From NCBI GenBank assembly GCA_947628485.1, contig CANRAA010000002.1, forward strand, positions 1 to 43,648: DNA of 43,648 bases, in the 5' to 3' direction. This DNA is from an uncultured Bacilli bacterium (GTDB taxonomy: Bacteria; Bacillota_I; Bacilli_A; RF39; UBA660). The first letter of the stretch is position 1; every line of letters begins with the position of its first letter. The translations under genes and the position numbers were made by a program. The notes below the pieces were generated by a model, which was not told the DNA's origin, made no database searches, and worked only from the letters and a program-made list of their open reading frames with translations. This document shows positions 2,546-14,320 of the stretch, piece by piece.

Positions 2546-3820
2546 TTATTTTAACTTCTTTCTTTTAATAGGAGTATCACTAATAAATAATTGTTCATAT
2601 TTTTGTCTATCATTTAAAATTTTATCATAATTTTTTCTCTGTAATAAATGCATTAAATTTATAAAATCACTATCTATTTCGGGTACTTGCATATTCTTTT
2701 TTATATGCTCCAAGGCTTGTTTTAATTTTTCAATATTTGCTCCTTTTACATATGCAGCAAACTTATAAATAAATTCGGCATTTCCCGTTTGAATAACAGC
2801 ATCCTCTAATTTTTTAATATTAGCTCCTTTTACATATGTAGCAAAATAATAAATGTCTACTGCATATTGAGATTTGCATATAGCATCTTCCAACTTTTTA
2901 ATATGAGCTTTTTTGACAAATCGGGCAAACTCATAAATATATTTCATATATTGTGTCTCTATAATGGCATTCTCTAATTTGATAATGTCGGATTCCATTA
3001 TGTCTCGAGCAAAATAATAAATATATTCCGCATTCCCAGTTTGAATAATGGTATCTTCTAACTTAGAAATATTAACACCTTTTACATATGCAGCAAACTT
3101 ATAAATATATTCCGCATTTTTTGTTTGAATGATAGCCTCTTCTAATTTAAGAATGTTAGCTCCTTTGACTGTACTTGCAAAATAATAGATATATTCCGCT
3201 TTATGAAATTTAATAATTGCCTCTTCTAACATAGAAATATTAGCATCTTTTACAAACATTGCAAATTCATAAATATAGGTAATATTTTTAGTTTTACTCA
3301 TGGCAATACTTAGTTTATTAACATTAGCTCCTTCTATAAATCTTGCAAATATATAAATATATTCCGCATTTTCTGTTTGAATAATCGCATCTTCTAATTT
3401 ATTAATATTAGCATTTAAAACGTCTCTAGCAAATTTATAAATGTATTCCACGTTCCCAATTTGGATAATCGCCTCTTCTAATTTCTCTATGCTAACACCT
3501 TTAACCCTATTAGCAAAATTAAAAATGTATTCAACATTTTTAGTTTGAATAATGGCCTCACTTAATTTTTCTACATTGGCTCCTTTTATATTTTTAGCAA
3601 AATAATAGATGTATTCAGCATTTTGATTTTTAATGATAGCCTCTTCTAATTTAGTAATATTTACTCTTTTTATATCTTTTGCAAACTCATAAATATATTG
3701 GTCATTTTTACTTTCAATAACAGCATCACAAGCAATTTTTTTATTTATAATTCCTAATTCTACTAGTTTTTTAAATTCATTATAATTTTGTTTCATTAAC
3801 CTATTAATATTTGAATTCAT
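2546..3820 (-). CDS. Tandem-repeat protein with twelve 28-aa helical repeats, function unknown
   Basis: The ORF is open to 3862, but the ATG at 3820 follows a GGGTGG Shine-Dalgarno sequence. The repeat consensus is N-AEYIY-FA--VKGANI-KLE-AIIQT-. Confidence 0.75.
   Translation of the reverse strand: MNSNINRLMKQNYNEFKKLVELGIINKKIACDAVIESKNDQYIYEFAKDIKRVNITKLEEAIIKNQNAEYIYYFAKNIKGANVEKLSEAIIQTKNVEYIFNFANRVKGVSIEKLEEAIIQIGNVEYIYKFARDVLNANINKLEDAIIQTENAEYIYIFARFIEGANVNKLSIAMSKTKNITYIYEFAMFVKDANISMLEEAIIKFHKAEYIYYFASTVKGANILKLEEAIIQTKNAEYIYKFAAYVKGVNISKLEDTIIQTGNAEYIYYFARDIMESDIIKLENAIIETQYMKYIYEFARFVKKAHIKKLEDAICKSQYAVDIYYFATYVKGANIKKLEDAVIQTGNAEFIYKFAAYVKGANIEKLKQALEHIKKNMQVPEIDSDFINLMHLLQRKNYDKILNDRQKYEQLFISDTPIKRKKLK
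2699..3706 (-). repeat. Coding tandem repeat, 12 copies of 84 bp with no length variation
   Basis: Residues 53-388 of the 438-aa ORF resolve into 12 consecutive 28-aa units. Non-adjacent units share long near-identical DNA stretches, for example around 2748 versus 3083. Confidence 0.8.
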
Positions 3821-3883
3821 AATCCACCCTTTCTTGGGTATAGTATTATAACATTTTTTCATATATTTTCAAGTTAATAAGTC

Positions 3884-3911
3884 AAAAAAAACACTTAAGT
3901 TTTACCTTAAG
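3884..3911 (-). terminator. Intrinsic terminator after pheT
   Basis: The minus strand reads CUUAAG-GUAAAA-CUUAAG followed by UGUUUUUUUU, immediately downstream of the pheT stop. Confidence 0.6.
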
Positions 3912-3915
3912 CATT

Positions 3916-6303
3916 TTATTTATCTCTAACGGTAGCTTTAAATTTTTCTAAAACATCTAAAATTATTTTATTAAATATTTCCATAACTTCTTCTTCCGTT
4001 AAAGTTCTCGTATTGTCTTCAAAGGTTAATTTATAAGCAATACTCTTTTTATTTTCATCAATTCTATCACCCGTATAAACATCAAAAATTTTAATATCGG
4101 TAAGAAGTTTACCCCCACTTTTCTTAATGGCTTTTAAAATATCAATAGATGGGATATCTTTATCAACTACAAAGGCCACATCTTTTTCCACTTTTGGATA
4201 TTTATTTAACTCTTGATATTTAACATCTCCTGTTTTATGTTCTAAAATTTCACTTAAGTCAATTTCACAAACATAAACATCTTCTTTAGATACTTTTGGA
4301 TGAAGTTTTCCAAAGTAACCAACATTTTTACCATCAATGGTAATTTCGCTATTAATTTTAGGATGAATCTCTTGAGGTAAATTATCACTTAAAGATAGAG
4401 TATAACGATTATTATAACCTAAATAGTTAAGTAAGTTTTCGACTATTCCTTTCATAAGATAAAAATCAACTTTATAACTTAAACTATTCCAAGTATTATT
4501 TAAGTATTCGCCACTTATACCAAAGGCTAAATGACTATTTTCCACATATTCCTCTTCTTCATGGTAAACATTAGATATTTCATAAATAAAGACATCATTA
4601 TTTTTCTTTTCTTTATTATAAAGTAAAACATTTACTAAAGAAGGTAGAATACTTTGTCTTACACAAGATTTTTCTTTTAACATTGGTCTTAATAATTTGA
4701 TGGTCTTATCGAAATGATAATCATATTTAGTAGTTTCTTCTTCACTAATTAAAGTATAAGTTCTAATTTCGCTGAATCCTAAACTACGCATTTTTTTAGA
4801 AACTATTTTTCTTAATTTAACATTATCCCGGTATTCGCCCTTTTTAGTTTTAATTAAAGGGAGAGTTGGTTCAATGTTATCATAGCCATAAATCCGCCCA
4901 ATTTCTTCGATAATATCTTCTTTTTGATTATAGATATCTTGTCTTCGATTCGGAATAGTGACCGTATAAACATCACCCTTTTTAGTATACGTAAAACCTA
5001 AAGCCTTTAAGATATTTTCGACTTCTTCTCCCTTTATATTCATACCTAAAATACTATTGATACTTTCAAGAGAAACATCTACCACTTTTGGTGTTTTATC
5101 GACTTTATCATAAGTCACAATACCTTTAACTATTTTAGCATCGGCATATTTTTCAAGCAAATGACAAGCTCTTTTAATTGCTAAAAGAGTAAATTCATAA
5201 CTAAGAGGTTTTTCCAGTCTTAAACTGGCTTCACTACGCAACCCTAAACGAATGGAAGTATATCTAATATTATAAGGATTGAATATTGCTGACTCAATTA
5301 AAATGTTTTTAGTACTAGCGGTAATCCCGCTGTTAAGGCCGCCCATAACCCCAGCTACACATAAAGGGGTATCGCCATCAGAAATAACAATATCTTCGGT
5401 AGTTAACTCTCGATCAACCCCATCTAAAGTTTTAATAATTTCTTTATCGTGAGCCATTCTAACCACTATTTTATCGCCCACAACATCTTTATCAAAGAAA
5501 TGAAGAGGTTGGCCATACTCAAGCATGACATAATTGGAAATATCAACAACATTATTAATACTTCTTACTCCTGCTGCCTCTAATCTTCTTTTAATAAAGT
5601 TAGGACTTTCCTTAATAACAACATCTTTTGCCACCATTAAGTTATACATGGATACATTATCTGTAGTAACATCTAAAGATACATAGTTATTAACATCTTC
5701 ATCTAACTCTTTAAAACTAACATCCGGCATATTTACTTTTTTATTTAAAGCCGCTGCCACTTCATAAGCAAAAGGTAAGTGATTATTACAATCTGTTCGG
5801 TTAGGATTTAAATCTAACTCATATAAAGTATCATTATATCCTAAATATTCTAAAGGATCTTCTCCTACGGGAGCATCATCTGGTAACTCCGTAATTCCTT
5901 TCGCGTAGGTCTCATCCGTTTTTTCTTCTAAACCAAGTTCAAACAAAGCACAAATCATGCCATTAGACTCAACACCTCTAATTTTACTTTTCTTAATAGT
6001 AAAATCTCCAGGAAGAATAGCCCCTTCTAAAGCCACAATTACTTTAAGGTTCTCTCTTACATTAGAAGCTCCACAAACAATTTGCAAAGTCTTATCCCCA
6101 ACATTAACTAGGCATACATGTAAATGGTCACTATCAGGATGCATTTCCACTTTTTCAATTTGGCCAATAACTAAATTATTAATATTATTACTAATTACTT
6201 TTTCGACATTAATCCCCGCATCTGTGATTTTTTGGGCTAAAGTTTTTTTATCTTCATTCTTAATGTCGACATAATCATTAACCCAATTTAAACTAATTGC
6301 CAT
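3916..6303 (-). CDS. pheT: Phenylalanine--tRNA ligase beta subunit
   Basis: The N-terminus MAISLNWVNDYV is typical, as are the tRNA-binding domain (MHPDSDHLHVCLVNVG) and the overall length and domain order. I prefer the ATG at 6303, one nt after the pheS stop and preceded by AAGGGAG, over the ORF-track start at 6324. Confidence 0.95.
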   Translation of the reverse strand: MAISLNWVNDYVDIKNEDKKTLAQKITDAGINVEKVISNNINNLVIGQIEKVEMHPDSDHLHVCLVNVGDKTLQIVCGASNVRENLKVIVALEGAILPGDFTIKKSKIRGVESNGMICALFELGLEEKTDETYAKGITELPDDAPVGEDPLEYLGYNDTLYELDLNPNRTDCNNHLPFAYEVAAALNKKVNMPDVSFKELDEDVNNYVSLDVTTDNVSMYNLMVAKDVVIKESPNFIKRRLEAAGVRSINNVVDISNYVMLEYGQPLHFFDKDVVGDKIVVRMAHDKEIIKTLDGVDRELTTEDIVISDGDTPLCVAGVMGGLNSGITASTKNILIESAIFNPYNIRYTSIRLGLRSEASLRLEKPLSYEFTLLAIKRACHLLEKYADAKIVKGIVTYDKVDKTPKVVDVSLESINSILGMNIKGEEVENILKALGFTYTKKGDVYTVTIPNRRQDIYNQKEDIIEEIGRIYGYDNIEPTLPLIKTKKGEYRDNVKLRKIVSKKMRSLGFSEIRTYTLISEEETTKYDYHFDKTIKLLRPMLKEKSCVRQSILPSLVNVLLYNKEKKNNDVFIYEISNVYHEEEEYVENSHLAFGISGEYLNNTWNSLSYKVDFYLMKGIVENLLNYLGYNNRYTLSLSDNLPQEIHPKINSEITIDGKNVGYFGKLHPKVSKEDVYVCEIDLSEILEHKTGDVKYQELNKYPKVEKDVAFVVDKDIPSIDILKAIKKSGGKLLTDIKIFDVYTGDRIDENKKSIAYKLTFEDNTRTLTEEEVMEIFNKIILDVLEKFKATVRDK

Positions 6304-6304
6304 T

Positions 6305-7354
6305 TTAATACTCCCTTCTATCAAATTCTTTAAGCATTCTCACATCATGGTTCATATAGAATACTCTTATATCTTCAACGCCATATTTTAACATGGCTAG
6401 TCTTTCAATCCCAAAACCAAAAGCAAAACCATTCCATTTATCGGGGTCATATCCACAATTTTTTAAAACTATTGGATTAACCATCCCAGCTCCGCCAACG
6501 GTAATCCAACCAGTACCCTTACAAATATTGCAACCTTTACCATTACAGTTAAAACAACTGATGTCCATTTCCACACTAGGTTCCGTAAATGGATAATATG
6601 AAGGTCTAAAACGCGTACTTCTTCCTTTACCAAATAACATTTTGGCTACTTCTTCAAAAGTTCCTTTTAAATCTCCTAAAGTTATATTTTTATCAACAAG
6701 GAGTCCTTCCATTTGGGTAAATTCATGAGAATGGGTCGCATCATCTTCATCTCTTCTATAAGTTTTTCCTGGACAAATAATTCTAATTGGCTCTTTACCT
6801 TCCCCTTTTAACATTTCTCTTACTTGCACAGGACTTGTTTGACTACGAAGTAAATATTCATCACCTTTTATATAAAAGGTATCTTGCGCATCTCTTGCCG
6901 GATGTCCTTTAGGTAAATTTAATAACTCAAAGTTATATAAATCTTTTTCCACTTCCGGTCCTTCTACAACATCATAACCCATACTCATTAAAAGATTTTC
7001 TAAACTTTCAATAATTCTTTCAATGGGATGGGCACTCCCACTTAAAATATTAGTTCCAGGCAAAGTTACATCAATTGCTTCACTTTCTAATTTTTGATTA
7101 ATTAATTCTTCTTCTAATCTTTCTTTAATTTCTTCATATTTTGTATTAAAAGTGTTTTTAAGTTCATTTACTTTCATCCCAAATTCTTTTTTCTCTTCAT
7201 TGGGTACATCTTTAATCAAACTATTTAAAACGGTTATTTTGCCATTCTTACCCATGTATTCTACTTTAAGTTCTTCTAATCTTTTTTGATCAATACTTCC
7301 TTCAAATACATTTTTTAATTCCTTTTCTATTTCTTTAATCTTTTCATTATGCAT
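6305..7354 (-). CDS. pheS: Phenylalanine--tRNA ligase alpha subunit
   Basis: 349 aa with class II aaRS motifs (FRPSYYPFTEPS, GFAFGFGIERLAML) and an N-terminal coiled coil. It sits immediately upstream of pheT. Confidence 0.95.
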   Translation of the reverse strand: MHNEKIKEIEKELKNVFEGSIDQKRLEELKVEYMGKNGKITVLNSLIKDVPNEEKKEFGMKVNELKNTFNTKYEEIKERLEEELINQKLESEAIDVTLPGTNILSGSAHPIERIIESLENLLMSMGYDVVEGPEVEKDLYNFELLNLPKGHPARDAQDTFYIKGDEYLLRSQTSPVQVREMLKGEGKEPIRIICPGKTYRRDEDDATHSHEFTQMEGLLVDKNITLGDLKGTFEEVAKMLFGKGRSTRFRPSYYPFTEPSVEMDISCFNCNGKGCNICKGTGWITVGGAGMVNPIVLKNCGYDPDKWNGFAFGFGIERLAMLKYGVEDIRVFYMNHDVRMLKEFDRREY

Positions 7355-7372: not shown

Positions 7373-7753
7373 TTATTCCTCAATTAAAGTAGGATTACTT
7401 TCTAATTCATCAATAATATCTTCCATACTTTTATTTTGATGATTAATTAGATATTCTTCTATTTCAAATGCATCTTTATTTAAAAATAAAGGATAACTAT
7501 CAAACAATAAATTTAAACTTTTAAAACCAACTTTTTGCATATAATCTATAAGACTTTTTACAGAGTCATAATCTCTTTCTAAAATAAAAGGATTACCTAC
7601 CACTATATTTCTTAATATATAATCATGACAATTAAGACTTTTTAATAATTCCAATATTTTATTAAAATCTTCTATATTATCATCATTTATAAATTCTTTT
7701 ATATTATTAAGATCTATTTCTCTTATACCTAACTCTATTAATTTATCTAACAT
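7373..7753 (-). CDS. Short mTERF-repeat-like protein (third of three)
   Basis: 126 aa with LIELGI...., LKSLNC....I.RNIVVGNPFIL and MQKVGFKS...LFDSYPLFL units of the same type as the two upstream genes. Its start overlaps the upstream gene by 11 nt, and pheS begins 18 nt downstream. Confidence 0.6.
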   Translation of the reverse strand: MLDKLIELGIREIDLNNIKEFINDDNIEDFNKILELLKSLNCHDYILRNIVVGNPFILERDYDSVKSLIDYMQKVGFKSLNLLFDSYPLFLNKDAFEIEEYLINHQNKSMEDIIDELESNPTLIEE

Positions 7754-8639
7754 CTTTTATTTCCTCCTCTTTATTATAAGGATACATTAAAAGTAATTCT
7801 TTTTTAGAAACCCCATATTTGTTCTTAAAATGCTTCTCTTTATAAAATAAATTTTTAAATTCTTCTGTTTTAATATCATTATTCACAAAATAATGATATC
7901 TAGCATAGGATAACTCAACACTCTGCATAAGATAATTAATGTTATTTATTATAATATAATCTAAACCTATCTCTTTATAAAAATTTATTTTATTAGTTAT
8001 ATTTTCAAAGCTTAAACCAAATAAAGCTGGTAATTTTAAACACATTTTTAAGACTTCTTCTTTAGTATATCCTAAAGACATAATATCCTCTATTTTTTGC
8101 TTTATAGCATTAAAACTTAAACCAAATAAAGTTGGTAATATTAAATACATTTTTAAGACTTCTTCTTTACTATAACCCAAAGACATTATATTCTCTATTT
8201 TTTGGTTTATAGTTTTAAAACTTAAACTATATAAAGATGGACATTTTATAGTCATTTTAATTGCTTCTTCTTTTGTATAACCTAAAGACATCAAATCTTC
8301 TATTTTTTGGCTTATGTTTTCCTTACTTAATAAAAATATAGTTGGTAAATTTTTTCCCATTTTTTTTATATTTTCTTTTGAGTATCCTAAAGATATCAAG
8401 TATTCAATTTTTTGGTTTAAATAATCAACGTTCCTCCCAATTATACAAGGAAAAAATTTAACTATTTTGATAATTTCTGCTTTTTTATATCCAAACTCTA
8501 AAAGAAAATTATTAATATCTTTAAAATGTTTTAATATAGTCTTCGGATTATAAGTGATAAGTGAACTTTTTTCTAACATTTTTTCAATATCTTTTTCTAA
8601 AAAACCAAAGTCTATTAAATAATCATATACTTCTAACAT
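7743..8639 (-). CDS. mTERF-repeat-like protein (second of three)
   Basis: 298 aa with an approximately 35-aa periodic unit QKIEDxMSLGY(T/S)KEExxKMxxxxPxLFxLSxxxIx repeated at least 5 times. This matches the mTERF motif pattern (L..LGfs...i..il...P.ll..s). Confidence 0.75.
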   Translation of the reverse strand: MLEVYDYLIDFGFLEKDIEKMLEKSSLITYNPKTILKHFKDINNFLLEFGYKKAEIIKIVKFFPCIIGRNVDYLNQKIEYLISLGYSKENIKKMGKNLPTIFLLSKENISQKIEDLMSLGYTKEEAIKMTIKCPSLYSLSFKTINQKIENIMSLGYSKEEVLKMYLILPTLFGLSFNAIKQKIEDIMSLGYTKEEVLKMCLKLPALFGLSFENITNKINFYKEIGLDYIIINNINYLMQSVELSYARYHYFVNNDIKTEEFKNLFYKEKHFKNKYGVSKKELLLMYPYNKEEEIKDVR

Positions 8640-9525
8640 CTTTTATTTCCTCCTCATTTTTATAAGGATACATTAAGAGTAATTCTTTTTTAGAAACTCC
8701 ATATTTGTTTTTAAAACGCATTTCATCATAAAACAAATTTTTAAAACTCTCTATTTTAATATTATTTTTCTTAAAATAATTATATCTAGCATAGGATAAT
8801 TCTAAACTTTGCATAAGATTTTTAGGATATTTCGTTACATAAAATTCAAAGCCAATTTCGCGATAATAATTTATCTTATTAGATATATTTTCAAAACTAA
8901 GACCAAATAAGGCCGGTAATTCTAACATTATTTTTAAAGTTTGCTCTTTTGTATATCCTAGAGACATTATATCCTCCATCTTTTGCTTGATATTTTCTAT
9001 ACTAAGAGACAATATTGTTGGCATAACAACAGTCATTTTTATTACCTCTTCTTTTTGATAACCTAAAGATATTAGAAATTCTAATTTTTGACTTAAGAAT
9101 TCAATATTATAAGCCCATACTGATGGTACTGAGGCTATTATTTTTATTACTTGTTTCTTGGTGTATCCTAAATTTGTTAAATCTTCAAGTCTTTTTTCTA
9201 ACGTTTTAATATTATAATTAAAAATTGCTGGTACTGATACTGTCATTTTAATTACTCGTTCTTTAGTATAACCTAAAGATATTAAATATTCTATCTTTTG
9301 TTTTATGTTTTCTACACTAAAACTATACAATGTTGGAGAATTTATGGCTATTTTTATAATTTGTAATTTGGTATAATCTAATTCTTTTAAATAATCGCTA
9401 ATATTTTTAATATGTTTTAATAATGTAGTTGGTACAAAAGCACTAATTGAATAATTGTTAAAAATTTCATCTACTTCTTCTTTTGTAAAACCAAATTCTA
9501 TTAAATAACTATAAACTTCTTCCAT
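8623..9525 (-). CDS. mTERF-repeat-like protein (first of three, first gene after the T-box)
   Basis: 300 aa, paralogous to 7743-8639 with the same repeat unit. A strong GAAGGAGG Shine-Dalgarno sequence lies directly after the T-box terminator. It overlaps the next gene by 17 nt. Confidence 0.75.
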   Translation of the reverse strand: MEEVYSYLIEFGFTKEEVDEIFNNYSISAFVPTTLLKHIKNISDYLKELDYTKLQIIKIAINSPTLYSFSVENIKQKIEYLISLGYTKERVIKMTVSVPAIFNYNIKTLEKRLEDLTNLGYTKKQVIKIIASVPSVWAYNIEFLSQKLEFLISLGYQKEEVIKMTVVMPTILSLSIENIKQKMEDIMSLGYTKEQTLKIMLELPALFGLSFENISNKINYYREIGFEFYVTKYPKNLMQSLELSYARYNYFKKNNIKIESFKNLFYDEMRFKNKYGVSKKELLLMYPYKNEEEIKDVRSI

Positions 9526-9540
9526 CTTGAACCTCCTTCA

Positions 9541-9750
9541 AAAATAAAAGTTCATAAATAAGGCTAAAGGACGAAAGTAATTCCGCGGTACCACCTTTAT
9601 TTATGAACTTAATCATACTCTTTTATTCGTATTGTGAATAGCCCATTATTTGCTCCTTAATTTGAAATTCAGTTATTTTAGTACTATAAATATTTCCACC
9701 CTTATATATTTATTCTCTAAACTAGTTTTAATAACCTACTCTAATTAAAT
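9541..9750 (-). promoter_or_regulatory. T-box leader (riboswitch), Phe specifier
   Basis: The minus strand contains the conserved T-box sequence AAAGGUGGUACCGCGGAA (plus-strand 9581-9598). This overlaps the 5' arm of a terminator, GUUCAUAAAUAAAGG...CCUUAUUUAUGAAC followed by UUUUAUUUU (9541-9608). Upstream Stem-I-like elements are AGAGA, GGUGGAA and AGUA, plus a candidate specifier GAAUUUCAAA. That specifier reads UUC followed by A, or UUU; both are Phe codons (around 9664-9666). Confidence 0.8.
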
Positions 9751-9764
9751 CATCACAAATACTC

Positions 9765-10304
9765 TTAATAATTTTCAGCTTTTCTTTCAAAATAACTTTT
9801 AGCATGTTTACATACAGGACATACTTCTGGAGCTTTCTTCCCAATAACAACATGACCACAATTACGGCATACCCAAATAGTATCACCTTCAGAAGTAAAT
9901 ACTAATCCTTCATCCATATTACTAATTAATTTACGATATCTTTCTTCATGTTCTTTTTCAATTGCCCCAACCATTTCAAATAAAGTGGCAAGTCTATCAA
10001 AACCTTCTTCTTTGGCTGTCTCCGCAAATTCTTTATACATATCAGTCCATTCGTAATTTTCGCCACTGGCAGCATCTTCTAAGTTAGTATGTGTATCAGG
10101 AACATCGCCATCATGTAATTCTTTAAACCAAATCTTTGCATGTTCCTTTTCATTATTCGCAGTTTCTTCAAAAATGGCTGCTATTTGTTCATAACCTTCT
10201 TTTCTGGCTTTACTAGCATAATAAGTATATTTATTTCTTGCTTGGCTTTCTCCAGCAAATGCGGCCATTAAATTTTTTTCCGTTTGACTTCCTTTTAATT
10301 CCAT
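9765..10304 (-). CDS. rbr: Rubrerythrin
   Basis: 179 aa with a ferritin-like diiron domain ([16 protein letters not shown]) followed by a C-terminal rubredoxin-like CRNCG...CPVC. Confidence 0.9.
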
Positions 10305-10359: not shown

Positions 10360-11142
10360 TTAATTATGTCGATTATTCTTTACTTTCTTTAATTCTTTAT
10401 AAGCATTATTTAAATATTTATTATTGCTTTTTCCATCATTTTTAATTTTTTCAACTCTTTCATTAATTTCTTGCTTAATTTCTTCAGTTTTAGAGTTATC
10501 TTCAACTTCTTTATCAATCTTTTTTTCTTCGATTTCTTCTTGTTCTTCTTGTTTAATTTCCTTAGATAAATTAAATATTTTTAAAATATCTTTAACTATA
10601 ATATATAATGCTGGAATTAAAATCACTAATAACCAACCTAGACTACTTGATAAGAAGAATTGTAGTTTACCAAGTTTTGGAATAACGGCTTTAACGACCC
10701 CTACAACATTACTTTTCTTAACACAAACGGCATCTTCAGAAGTATTATTATCTCCTCTGGTTACCAAACATTTCGAGCCATCATCTAAGGTTTTCATGTC
10801 AACAACACGATGGGTAACCGTCATCCCATAATTAACTTGCCATGTCGATATATACGTAATAACATCATTTATTTTAACATCATCAATACTATTTATTTTG
10901 GTATTAATAATAACATCATATTTATCAATCGTGGGTTCCATACTTTCCGAAACCACGGTATAAACCGAAAACTTAGGTTCAAACATTTCACCATGGGTAG
11001 CATATAACCTAACCGAAATATAATAGTACACTAATAAAATTCCCACAACAACTAGTAAGATAAAAACAGTCCAACTTACTACTGTGGAAATATATTTAAA
11101 TAAACCTTTGAAATTGTAACGTGTTTCTTCTGCGCTTTCCAT
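10360..11142 (-). CDS. sipW: Signal peptidase I, ER/archaeal (SipW) type, with a long charged C-terminal tail
   Basis: It has the SESMEPTI box, THRVV (the His of the Ser-His type) and TRGDNN, flanked by N- and C-terminal TM helices. An approximately 75-aa E/K-rich tail follows the second TM helix. Confidence 0.85.
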   Translation of the reverse strand: MESAEETRYNFKGLFKYISTVVSWTVFILLVVVGILLVYYYISVRLYATHGEMFEPKFSVYTVVSESMEPTIDKYDVIINTKINSIDDVKINDVITYISTWQVNYGMTVTHRVVDMKTLDDGSKCLVTRGDNNTSEDAVCVKKSNVVGVVKAVIPKLGKLQFFLSSSLGWLLVILIPALYIIVKDILKIFNLSKEIKQEEQEEIEEKKIDKEVEDNSKTEEIKQEINERVEKIKNDGKSNNKYLNNAYKELKKVKNNRHN

Positions 11143-11211: not shown

Positions 11212-11940
11212 CTAGGCACTTGCTTTATACTCTATTTTAAAATTAGCCCTATAAACTTTACCAACCGTACTTTCTCTATTTCTAATTATGGTCTCACTTT
11301 TCCAATACATTTTCTTACTTTCTCCCGGTTTACTCGTAAGTTCATAATTAGTAGCCACATTAATATTACCCGTAATTCCTCCAACATCATAGAAATTACT
11401 AGTGATAGCGTCAATAGTACTAAAAGGCGTACTAATTACATAATTAACATTTTCCCAAGTTTCATTATCAAAAGAATAGGAAAATCTTACTATAACATCA
11501 CTATTAATACTACTAATTGCATTATATACAAAATCATTTTTTTCAATTTCATATTTAACATCAAAAACTAAACGACCATTTTCTTTAGAATCCTCTTTAG
11601 TATTAACCTCAACATTAGCATATGACTCAATATTTACTTCACTTTCCGTTATGGTATCATCAATAGCTTTTTCAAACGGACCATTATTGGTAATTAAAGT
11701 TTTACTTTTAACATTGTTTACTTCAATTACTTCTTTATTATCTTTTATATTAAATTTTTTCTCGTAATAATTACCTATATAAAATAGAGTACAAAATAAA
11801 GTCAACGTAAAAAGAACTATTAAGATGATTAATAGAATAACACTGGTATATTTATTACTATGTGCCACTTTTTTTATCTCTAAATCTTCTTTATCATCAA
11901 TCTTACTTTTACTACTAGTATCAGTAACCCTTTTTTTCAT
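11212..11940 (-). CDS. Membrane-anchored, beta-rich hypothetical protein directly upstream of sipW
   Basis: The ORF is open to 11994, but the ATG at 11940 follows AAGGAAGG. There is a single N-terminal TM helix and then a polar, beta-rich domain. It could be a SipW substrate or partner, but I see no clear AYF motif. Confidence 0.6.
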   Translation of the reverse strand: MKKRVTDTSSKSKIDDKEDLEIKKVAHSNKYTSVILLIILIVLFTLTLFCTLFYIGNYYEKKFNIKDNKEVIEVNNVKSKTLITNNGPFEKAIDDTITESEVNIESYANVEVNTKEDSKENGRLVFDVKYEIEKNDFVYNAISSINSDVIVRFSYSFDNETWENVNYVISTPFSTIDAITSNFYDVGGITGNINVATNYELTSKPGESKKMYWKSETIIRNRESTVGKVYRANFKIEYKASA

Positions 11941-12134
11941 ATTGACCTTCCTTATTCTTAAATAAAGTATAACAAAATAATGGTTATTTTGCAATTATTT
12001 TATGCATTTTTAAAAATAACGAGGTAATAGATTTGTTTCGTAAAACTCACCATCCTCGTTTTCATTTTGGATAAAATTCTAGATAATCTTTGTCTTCTAT
12101 CTTCCCTAGTATATAACCTTAATCATATAATCAT

Positions 12135-12490: not shown

Positions 12491-14320
12491 TTATTGTACT
12501 CTAAATGGATCAGTGCTTATTCCACTACCTGTAAGTGTAACACTTGACTGCAAATAGAAGACATATCTGCCGGTTCTACTGTGCCCTGTTTGCAAGGGGG
12601 CCAGGCGACCATCTTGATATATAGCCCACGCCTCATTGGTGTCACCCTCCATCCCATACCTACTCATCGTCCACTCGAAAAACTCCCAACAGCTCTCCTT
12701 ACAAGAATACAACCAACTATTTGCATTTGAATAATCACCAGGCCAATCAAACGCACTATCCGACCACTCAGATGGATAATCCCAAGAATTATAATAATCA
12801 CTGGCATACATTAATCCTATATATGCTTGTACTGTTCCATCTTGCTTTCCTGTTGTTTTTGATGTCCATGGATATGTTTTTGTTTGTTCCATGTTCCATG
12901 TATGCTTTTCGATTAATCCTTTTATTCTTGTGTTTATTGAATTGTAAAATTCTCCATTCAAGTTTGTATATAAGTCTGATTCATTCCAAATCACTTTACT
13001 GTATAGATAACCCCAATAGCCATAAACCCCATAACGATCGTGAATCACTTTTAGTTTGCCATCTGTTGTTATCCCTATTATTCGGTACATATCACGACCA
13101 TCTTGACATTTGTCTGTCGACGTAGAGCCTAAACAGATATAATTGTTTGTTACTTCATCTTTTGTTCCATAATATCTATACATTCCATCCACTGCTGTTG
13201 TTTGTAATGTTTGAACTCCGTTTGCACCAGTTGCATATTTCCTTAAATAATCTATTGGTCCACTTTCTTTTGTTTTAAATGCATAATGTACTCTATTTGC
13301 TATACCACTATTGCCTGCTTTGTCTTTGGCATAGACATAGAAAGTGTAACTTGTTCCGGCTTTTAAACTGTTTACTACAATACTTGCACTTGTTACACAG
13401 GTATAGTCTGTCTCTTTTGCTGAGTTCTTTTGGGAGTAACAATATTTTTCTATTCCACTTGTTGGACTTACTCCTATCTTATTATCATTTGCTGTTATAC
13501 TTAATGTTAAGTTTGTTTCATTTATTGTTGGGGCTGTTACTTTTGTTACTGTTGGTGGTGTTACATCATATATTATGGCACTTGTCTTAACACTTGATAT
13601 ATTACCAGCTTTATCTCTTACATATCCTCTTACCGTCTTTGCCCCTTCTGTTGTATTGGTAAAGGTATAACTTGTACTTTTTCCTACTGTTACCCATGTA
13701 CAATTCTTTGTATCTGTTCCTTCGGTTACACACATATCTTGAGGATTTGTTTCGGTATATGTAAAATATACTGTATTTGCCTGTAGATTGGTATATTTTG
13801 TAGCATCTTCATTTTTTATATAAAACTTATTTATTACTGGTAAGGTCTTATCATAGGTTATTACATCACTACTTGATATTGATTTATTCCCATATTTATC
13901 TTTAACAAATCCAAAGATGGTTTTGTTTCCATCTGTTTTAGTATCTTTAAATGTATAACTATACTGTTTATTTGAAGTTATGTTTTGCCATGTACAACTA
14001 CTTACATTATTTGTTTCTGTTATACATACTTGATCTATATTTTTATTATTTGTTCCTGGGGTTATATATACTGTATTACCTCCCGCATTTGTATACTTTG
14101 GAGTTGTTGTTTGTTTTATATAGAATGATGTTATCTTTGGTTTAAAATCTCCTACCTTACTATTAAATATTTGGACTGGGTCTGTTACACTATTATAATA
14201 AGCATGAGTATCTTTTACTGCTACATTTATTATTGTTATTACTAACAGTAATGTTATAACCCCTACTAATGTTATTCCTTCTTTACTCTTTATTAGTTCT
14301 TTTAGTTTTTCTTTATTCAT
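12491..14320 (-). CDS. Surface/secreted protein, paralog B (two Cys-pair modules, Fn3/Ig-like module, full C-terminal domain)
   Basis: 609 aa. The signal anchor is followed by KDTHAYYNSVTDPVQ. There are two tandem approximately 100-aa Cys-pair modules, a DVTPPT linker and an Fn3-like module. The C-terminal domain carries LYRYYG, NNYICLG, MYRIIG..DGKLKVI, W.ESDLYTNLNGEFYNS and the ending ...FYLQSSVTLTGSG. Confidence 0.8.
   Translation of the reverse strand: MNKEKLKELIKSKEGITLVGVITLLLVITIINVAVKDTHAYYNSVTDPVQIFNSKVGDFKPKITSFYIKQTTTPKYTNAGGNTVYITPGTNNKNIDQVCITETNNVSSCTWQNITSNKQYSYTFKDTKTDGNKTIFGFVKDKYGNKSISSSDVITYDKTLPVINKFYIKNEDATKYTNLQANTVYFTYTETNPQDMCVTEGTDTKNCTWVTVGKSTSYTFTNTTEGAKTVRGYVRDKAGNISSVKTSAIIYDVTPPTVTKVTAPTINETNLTLSITANDNKIGVSPTSGIEKYCYSQKNSAKETDYTCVTSASIVVNSLKAGTSYTFYVYAKDKAGNSGIANRVHYAFKTKESGPIDYLRKYATGANGVQTLQTTAVDGMYRYYGTKDEVTNNYICLGSTSTDKCQDGRDMYRIIGITTDGKLKVIHDRYGVYGYWGYLYSKVIWNESDLYTNLNGEFYNSINTRIKGLIEKHTWNMEQTKTYPWTSKTTGKQDGTVQAYIGLMYASDYYNSWDYPSEWSDSAFDWPGDYSNANSWLYSCKESCWEFFEWTMSRYGMEGDTNEAWAIYQDGRLAPLQTGHSRTGRYVFYLQSSVTLTGSGISTDPFRVQ

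Follow-up and report, generated by a model that had tools for sequence, protein, structure and literature searches.

The question raised by this locus is what three mTERF-like genes are doing between a T-box leader and the phenylalanyl-tRNA synthetase genes pheS and pheT (pheST) of a bacterium. As cargo, T-boxes nearly always have synthetase, amino-acid biosynthesis or transporter genes, and mTERF proteins are textbook organellar factors, the eukaryotic members being nucleic-acid-binding superhelical repeat proteins. The DNA analysed (hereafter the window) comprises 43,648 nt of contig CANRAA010000002.1 (assembly GCA_947628485.1), has a base composition of 27% GC and comes from an uncultured rabbit-gut bacterium; its proteins are 96–98% identical, at the protein level, to those of the rabbit-gut metagenome-assembled genome (MAG) "uncultured Bacilli bacterium Lapin-002__bin32" (L010; L-numbers are labels of surveyed relative loci and P-numbers representative protein clusters). 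Our reading, to which we assign a probability of about 0.6, is that the three genes and pheST would form one five-gene unit under a Phe T-box attenuator, and that the mTERF-like genes belong to a module of nucleic-acid binders recurrently linked to synthetase genes.

A probable five-gene unit behind a 240-nt leader

The gene order on the minus strand is rubrerythrin (9765–10304), a leader of 240 nt, three mTERF-like genes that we label pTERF-A (300 aa), pTERF-B (298 aa) and pTERF-C (126 aa), pheS and pheT. The features of the unit are as follows.

9762–9790, minus strand: weak candidate promoter that overlaps the rubrerythrin 3′ end (−35 TTGAAA at 9790–9785, 17 nt, −10 TAAGAG at 9767–9762)
9564–9762, minus strand: T-box leader (Stem I, reduced Stem II, Stem III, antiterminator; RF00230 match)
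9663–9666, minus strand: specifier UUC (Phe, 9666–9664) with 3′ purine A, conserved in seven species
9583–9598, minus strand (read 9598–9583): T-box core AAAGGUGGUACCGCGG with UGGU bulge, invariant in seven species
9540–9610, minus strand: T-box intrinsic terminator (5′ arm 9610–9594, enclosed A2 hairpin, 3′ arm 9563–9548, U-tract 9549–9540)
8623–9525, minus strand: pTERF-A, predicted mTERF-fold protein of isoelectric point (pI) 8.7
7743–8639, minus strand: pTERF-B, paralogue of pTERF-A, pI 8.8
7373–7753, minus strand: pTERF-C, acidic mini-mTERF, pI 4.3, net charge −15
6305–7354, minus strand: pheS, phenylalanine-tRNA ligase alpha subunit (TIGR00468, 338.5 bits, cut-off 237)
3916–6324, minus strand: pheT, phenylalanine-tRNA ligase beta subunit (TIGR00472, 818 bits, cut-off 403)
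3884–3917, minus strand: operon-closing intrinsic terminator immediately behind the pheT stop codon (−11.8 kcal/mol, z = −3.95, U-tract of eight)

The open reading frames (ORFs) overlap by 17 nt (pTERF-A/pTERF-B) and 11 nt (pTERF-B/pTERF-C) and only 18 nt separate pTERF-C from pheS, which is consistent with translational coupling; the Shine–Dalgarno (SD) sequence of pTERF-A is GAAGGAGG at 9539–9532 on the minus strand. For pheT, the longest ORF encodes 802 aa from a TTG start, and public gene calls give 795 aa. ORF lengths, overlaps, gap and SD sequence as given in an initial annotation of this DNA were all exact on recheck, as was its observation that the first gene after the leader terminator is not pheS, three mTERF-family genes standing between leader and pheST.

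This arrangement of five genes was found on 8 contigs from at least 6 samples, plus 6 further species, and the order T-box(UUC), pTERF genes, pheST is kept in seven species-level MAGs (the outcome of the leader survey that the initial annotation had proposed), none of which carries a second T-box before pheS. No tRNA gene was found within the window.

The leader as a Phe-specific T-box

The Rfam T-box model RF00230 aligns over its full length (model positions 1–219) to 9564–9762 of the minus strand, with 67.3 bits and E = 1.3e-14 when run in E-value mode on the leader. Rfam sets its gathering score at 93; the leader falls short of it owing to the deleted Stem II segment of the model, and a default Rfam scan of the window accordingly reported no match; the Rfam check suggested earlier thus returned the full-length alignment but not a score above threshold. 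Leaders at the same position in six species-level relatives scored 53–79 bits. Within Stem I, the AGAGA bulge, the GGUGGAA distal loop and the AGUA/GAA specifier loop, which had been picked out by eye together with the T-box core, all align to their positions in the model, giving the leader an AG bulge, a distal loop, an S-turn specifier loop and a specifier codon with a purine on its 3′ side.

The specifier had been left as either UUC followed by A or UUU. In the seven-species alignment UUC with its 3′ A is invariant, whereas the base ahead of it changes (AUUC, GUUC). This fixes the specifier as UUC and led to the rejection of UUU. Two further pheS leaders (L018 and L027) read GAA-UUC-A in the specifier loop. 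At the other contact point the UGGN bulge takes the form UGGU, which we take to fit the ACCA end of tRNA(Phe) with discriminator A73. The fourth UGGN base follows the specifier in other surveyed leaders (UGGC with Asp and Asn, UGGU with Ala), presumably in step with the discriminator identities of those tRNAs, and UGGA is seen in T-box cores upstream of glyS genes. On these grounds the leader is identified as a full-length, Phe-specific T-box, and the operon with its Phe-sensing attenuator is well supported by sequence and comparison.

Opposed to the antiterminator is a terminator (9610–9548) with a folding energy of −22.4 kcal/mol (z = −3.7). Over the seven species its 17 pairs show 99% pairing, and one pair occurs as G-C, A-U and U-A. 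Its 5′ arm consists of the 3′ strand of Stem III and the 5′ part of the T-box, enclosing the A2 hairpin, so that terminator and antiterminator A1 helix compete for AAAGG and are mutually exclusive in a non-canonical architecture. Terminators of the same build, with the 5′ T-box strand as 5′ arm and an enclosed A2 hairpin, also occur in L018 (1350–1560) and L027 (7535–7730); an example of this lineage type is AAGAAUGGUACC...GGUACCAUUCUUUUU, in which the antiterminator 3′ strand is not shared, unlike in canonical T-boxes.

Compared with the RF00230 T-boxes of pheST and other synthetase operons in Firmicutes, the leader shares the Stem I motifs, the specifier with its purine, the UGGN bulge, an antiterminator and a terminator that exclude each other, a U-tract and the putative control of pheST. 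It differs in having three non-synthetase genes (2.2 kb) between leader and pheS, in its reduced Stem II with a score below the Rfam gathering threshold, and in its terminator, where the 5′ T-box strand serves as 5′ arm and the antiterminator 3′ strand is not re-used.

The attenuator would operate as follows. Uncharged tRNA(Phe) would pair through its GAA anticodon with the UUC specifier and through its free ACCA end with the UGGU bulge, stabilizing the antiterminator (AAAGG:CCUUU plus the A2 helix) against the 17-bp terminator; RNA polymerase would then read into pTERF-A, pTERF-B, pTERF-C, pheS and pheT, and stop at the terminator after pheT.

Limits of the transcription unit

A generic promoter and terminator scan was uninformative in DNA of 27% GC and missed the T-box terminator; a scan for a hairpin followed by a U-tract was used instead. 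Run from 9800 to 3700 on the minus strand, it found nothing except the T-box region and the hairpin after pheT, in agreement with the earlier claims that no hairpin lies between the third ORF and pheS and that the five genes make one operon. The sequence thus supports a single unit of leader, pTERF-A, pTERF-B, pTERF-C, pheS and pheT.

At the upstream limit, the T-box alignment begins 3 nt past the stop codon of rubrerythrin (9765) in all seven species, and the last ~36 nt of the rubrerythrin gene (window 9762–9800) are near-invariant at synonymous sites across them, which suggests either an embedded promoter or co-transcription with rubrerythrin. The candidate promoter at 9762–9790 carries a better −10 in relatives (TAATAG or TAATAA), and the generic promoter scan gave no match there. 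Since the promoter at the leader is only a weak match, a transcription start just before the leader is something that we infer, with read-through from a rubrerythrin promoter as a possible alternative.

The unit could also be divided in function, the T-box governing the pTERF genes alone and pheST being transcribed mainly from an internal promoter in pTERF-B or pTERF-C. Promoter-like matches do lie at suitable places (TTGTCA-18-TATAGT at 7631–7602, TTGAAA-17-AATCAT at 7467–7439), and essential PheRS needs basal expression. Such hexamers, however, occur inside the pTERF genes at chance level (51 found against 43.9 ± 5.7 expected at 27% GC); the Phe specifier and UGGU bulge are kept in seven species although the first gene is not pheS, with no second T-box in front of it; and another leader would not fit into the 18-nt gap or between genes that overlap. 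We consider this division of control quite improbable.

Two large proteins with a predicted mTERF fold

Both large ORFs belong to the mTERF family, as their repeat signature had suggested: Pfam PF02536 scores 103.5 bits on pTERF-A and 113.3 bits on pTERF-B (cut-off 23.1), and the two proteins are 55% identical. NCBIfam holds no model for pTERF-A, pTERF-B or pTERF-C. An AlphaFold (AF2) model of pTERF-A (pLDDT 91.3, pTM 0.80) found human MTERF1–DNA complexes as its best Foldseek matches (E = 7e-9, TM 0.65), and the top 17 matches were all MTERF1, MTERF3, MTERF4 or mS93, which bears out the comparison of predicted fold with mTERF structures that had been suggested at the outset. The model predicts a superhelical array of three-helix motifs of ~30–35 aa, as in solved MTERF structures.

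A profile built from an alignment of large proteins with 28 homologues (A1) matches human MTERF1 at E = 1.7e-17, and also MTERF3 and MTERF4. The aligned proteins consist of an N-terminal part of ~45 aa, a variable number of 35-aa units with the consensus SIENIKQKIEDLISLGYSKEDVIKMTKxLPxLY, and a conserved C-terminal part (LMQSxxLSYARYxF...). Detected repeats number 796 in 122 large proteins, at 2–15 per protein, and their variability is spread over positions 4, 7, 8, 13, 22, 23 and 25. At DNA level the unit corresponds to a 105-nt period, of which pTERF-B holds four tandem copies (7986–8405) and pTERF-A four further matches in register (8872–9396, one unit skipped). The pTERF-A and pTERF-B genes share a C-terminal segment of 300 nt that is 80% identical, and the 3′ end of each large gene holds the SD sequence and ATG of the next gene, an arrangement that is the signature of tandem duplication.

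Sequence-profile and predicted-fold similarity thus join these proteins to the eukaryotic mTERFs (MTERF1, MTERF3, MTERF4 and the plant mTERFs; PF02536), from which they differ in their near-perfect tandem repeats, their setting in bacterial operons and a separate acidic mini-mTERF. The large proteins are mildly basic (median pI 8.8) and by analogy are presumably nucleic-acid binders. The bacterial mTERF relatives are not known to have a role in termination, ribosome assembly or splicing.

The family itself was described before. The initial annotation held mTERF proteins to be overwhelmingly eukaryotic and a bacterial case to be undescribed, a view overtaken in 2024 when prokaryotic mTERF-like "pTERF" proteins were named from Bacillota gut MAGs (Nucleic Acids Res 2024; PMC11417379). 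They consist of 35-aa tandem repeats with mTERF motifs (3–11 units), predicted to form a solenoid of three-helix repeats, and two of them show sequence-specific binding to double-stranded DNA in vitro with nanomolar dissociation constants (Kd): pTERF1 (MBQ3414883.1) binds ACTNNNAGTC with a Kd of 1.9 nM, and pTERF2 a different motif (PMC11417379). The tandem 35-aa mTERF-like units, their variable number, the predicted solenoid and the origin in Bacillota gut MAGs are shared with the window proteins, which very probably belong to the same family, the two having been compared by description. An exact look-up of 10 family members returned a single accession, MBQ3475117.1, named "hypothetical protein" and derived from the same MAG collection as pTERF1. 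Genomic context, an acidic partner, T-box control and synthetase adjacency, the points that set the present work apart, are not mentioned in the abstract, pTERF section or discussion of the published account (PMC11417379).

A small acidic partner

The claim that the third ORF is also an mTERF protein holds once evidence at profile level is brought in. PF02536 on pTERF-C alone gives 18.3 bits, below the cut-off, but a profile of its own family (A6, 43 sequences) matches human MTERF1 at E = 2.4e-8, and hhalign pairs the small with the large family at 96% probability. The small protein is a member of a separate, well conserved family related to mTERF. A small acidic protein is found near a large gene in 60 of 85 loci (duplicates included), and the small proteins have a median pI of 4.3 (n = 50) against 8.8 for the large ones. 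The acidic mini-mTERF is a previously unnoticed partner protein.

Modules in relatives are linked to synthetase genes

The homologue search yielded 123 metagenomic homologues, and 455 representative clusters match the large-family profile at E ≤ 1e-30. This breadth bears on whether the mTERF-like genes might come from contaminating eukaryotic DNA or a chimeric assembly, with a T-box match due to chance, a suspicion founded on the mainly eukaryotic family and the match below the Rfam gathering score. The identical five-gene order across contigs, samples and species, the bacterial SD sequences with overlapping starts, the profile matches just given and a T-box E-value of 1e-14 with covariation refute such an artefact, to which we give practically no credence.

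Scanning species-representative genomes gave 76 loci, nearly all in low-GC gut MAGs labelled Bacilli, Clostridia, Tenericutes or Erysipelotrichaceae; genes were taken from our own ORF calls, and association was counted over 78 loci. The sequences indicate a module specific to low-GC gut Firmicutes, made up of one or more basic mTERF-fold solenoids and an acidic partner of ~130 aa, whose genes nearly always share one orientation and sit tightly packed within housekeeping operons. A recognised synthetase gene stands at position +1 or +2 downstream of the module at 26 of the 78 loci, as against one upstream; counted per gene, synthetases make up 36/138 downstream and 1/101 upstream (Fisher p = 7.5e-9, with related genomes counted as independent). 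ThrRS in L052 adds one synthetase-adjacent locus to the 26. When the two genes downstream of modules were annotated with Pfam, in a survey that left out the pheS clade, aminoacyl-tRNA synthetases dominated, and the corresponding upstream control (two genes) had no synthetase family among its 25 most frequent Pfam families. At least eight specificities are represented (Phe, His/Asp, Asn, Ala, Pro, Thr, Gly, Glu), in the following arrangements.

T-box(UUC), pTERF genes, pheST: seven species
T-box(UUC), hydrolase, four pTERF genes, pheST: L018
polC, pTERF genes, T-box(UUC), hydrolase, pheST: L027, L089
T-box(GAC, Asp), pTERF genes, hisS-aspS: L020, and L026 as far as its contig reaches (leader and first pTERF gene)
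T-box(AAC, Asn), asnB, pTERF genes, asnS: L021
T-box(GCU, Ala), pTERF genes, alaS: L022
pTERF genes, T-box(GCU), alaS: L063, L085
pTERF genes, proS: L016
pTERF genes, thrS: L052
era, pTERF genes, recO, T-box, glyS: L007, L055
spo0A, pTERF genes, amylase, gltX: L033, L035, L037, L051

A regular expression for the T-box core missed the leaders of L018 and L027, both of which were recovered with an nhmmer profile and Rfam. Other neighbours of the module include RelA/SpoT, the CCA-adding enzyme, RNase Y, GyrA, RecG, Obg, XseA/XseB, Der and ABC-F. Four extra metagenomic homologue loci (at xseA-xseB, at der, in an unannotated context and at polC/pheS) again put synthetase adjacency at about one in three to four. 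The wider association of pTERF modules with synthetase and T-box loci is real. In the literature searched we found no paper describing pTERF modules at synthetase or T-box loci, or linking mTERF proteins with T-box riboswitches. The suggestion, made from the window alone, of an accessory role specific to Phe-tRNA does not survive the comparison, the same module occurring upstream of many synthetase types, with four T-box specificities and in synthetase-free operons.

Module content also varies. The pheS clade has one to three copies of the large gene. Between species with identities of 82–87% in PheS and 91–93% in rubrerythrin, pTERF-A keeps only ~50%; the module is evolutionarily mobile and fast-evolving. 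One 11-kb contig from a deer-caecum MAG (RGIG8542; L058, 1–11358) carries ten consecutive large pTERF genes, and two giant relatives (P0130 and P0174) reach 2013 and 1589 aa with 7–10 matched stretches. A third small family (~150 aa, no Pfam match), which may be a further module component, is placed between the large gene and the acidic partner, or just behind them, in Clostridia-labelled loci (L030, L032, L033, L035–L037, L043, L044, L048, L050–L052, L064, L065).

Dedicated partner or hitch-hiking cassette

The chief competing explanation for this distribution is that of a fast-evolving, duplicating cassette which settles wherever it is co-transcribed with highly expressed essential genes, its function (general DNA binding, nucleoid organization, or conflict and defence) being unrelated to tRNA charging and its T-box control incidental; leaders and gaps before synthetase genes would then be permissive landing sites. 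The tight, co-oriented packing of modules in diverse housekeeping operons speaks for it, as do their presence on either side of T-boxes, the variation in large-gene copy number (1–3 in close relatives, ten in L058), the 300-nt duplication carrying the start signals of the next gene, the divergence of pTERF-A against the constancy of PheS and rubrerythrin, and the two thirds of loci in which no synthetase gene adjoins the module. Against these stand the strong bias towards the 5′ side of synthetase genes of at least eight specificities, with essentially none upstream, and the conserved basic/acidic pairing, which argues for a selected cellular function. Neither transposase, integrase nor repeat boundaries were noticed around modules, though no systematic search was made for them. 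A defence system, an idea raised by the fast evolution and tandem arrays, was rejected, there being no PADLOC match. Hitch-hiking is to our minds a possible account that deserves to be kept in view, while falling well short of a probable one.

Several of the same observations, with others, weigh against the reading of a synthetase-linked module under T-box control. About two thirds of the loci have other genes beside the module (xseA-xseB, era-recO, der, spo0A, gyrA, recG, RNase Y, ABC-F). The module lies upstream of the T-box in six loci (L027, L089, L063, L085, L007, L055), and T-box control is therefore no general property. The enrichment statistic takes related genomes as independent, the surveyed loci were recovered by one C-terminal peptide pattern, and the match to the published pTERF family was made from description. 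For the window itself, the unit is one predicted from DNA sequence and its promoter is a weak match, while the chance-level promoter-like hexamers in the pTERF genes leave room for an internal pheST promoter. The 35-aa repeat, finally, varies only moderately at the positions given above and has no clear di-residue code; a sharp, TALE-like recognition code was rejected.

If the T-box reading is followed through, we infer a function for the module from its surroundings. The large pTERF proteins would be sequence-specific nucleic-acid binders, and their production would be tied to tRNA charging (in this genome that of tRNA(Phe)), giving the cis-acting T-box a trans-acting output, or, alternatively, the proteins might act on the expression of synthetase or tRNA genes, with the acidic partner perhaps modulating the large proteins; we hold these steps with lower confidence than the attenuator itself. 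A precedent for a trans-acting regulator as T-box cargo, relaying tRNA charging beyond the cis operon, is the at operon (rtpA-ycbK) of Bacillus subtilis, in which a tRNA(Trp) T-box reportedly controls anti-TRAP. Anti-TRAP, a small zinc protein whose target is TRAP, is no nucleic-acid-binding repeat protein and is encoded outside a synthetase operon, whereas for pTERF a regulatory role is suggested by context. The strongest version, that large and acidic pTERF proteins are dedicated partners of the tRNA-charging network, repeatedly recruited to synthetase operons and T-boxes as nucleic-acid-binding effectors that relay uncharged-tRNA sensing or act on tRNA, T-box RNA or synthetase transcription, is tentative, and we rate it as rather unlikely.

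Were that version true, bacterial mTERF-type proteins would have a physiological role for the first time, and it might help to explain the binding of eukaryotic mTERFs at organellar tRNA and rRNA genes, perhaps with a bearing on the origin of the family. Hitch-hiking alone would make the locus a case of a fast-evolving repeat-protein cassette colonizing essential operons. What is new here is a T-box operon with an unusual cargo and the first placing of a recently named protein family in its genomic context. The 2024 description reported DNA binding in vitro but no biological role (PMC11417379), and the context given here offers a testable hypothesis, namely that expression depends on tRNA charging and that the targets lie among synthetase, tRNA or T-box loci.

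Neighbouring genes

Genes after pheT are not syntenic among relatives. The next gene in the window (2546–3862, minus strand; likely true start 3820) encodes a basic protein (pI 9.1) of twelve tandem 28-aa (84-nt) two-helix repeats, NAEYIYxFAxxVKGANIxKLExAIIQTx, with no convincing match in Pfam and none in NCBIfam, PADLOC or Protein Data Bank sequences. It is 58% identical to its L010 counterpart, against 98% for PheS and PheT, and other relatives lack it behind pheT. Past the pheT terminator comes a promoter match (TTGAAA-16-TGtTATAAT at 3872–3845), the best in the region, that would serve this gene; with a promoter match of its own, the intervening terminator and the missing synteny in other relatives, it was rejected as a member of the operon. 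A single-sequence AF2 model (pLDDT 87) shows a generic alpha-solenoid (TM ~0.2 to Sel1 or ARM proteins), and the protein was likewise rejected as mTERF-like, its predicted fold being a generic two-helix solenoid.

Upstream of rubrerythrin lie three co-oriented ORFs (10360–11142, 11212–11994 and 12491–14320, minus strand) of 260, 260 and 609 aa, for which no precomputed Pfam match was found. The first (10360–11142) looks membrane-anchored with a charged tail, and the 260-aa pair is conserved beside rubrerythrin in close relatives.

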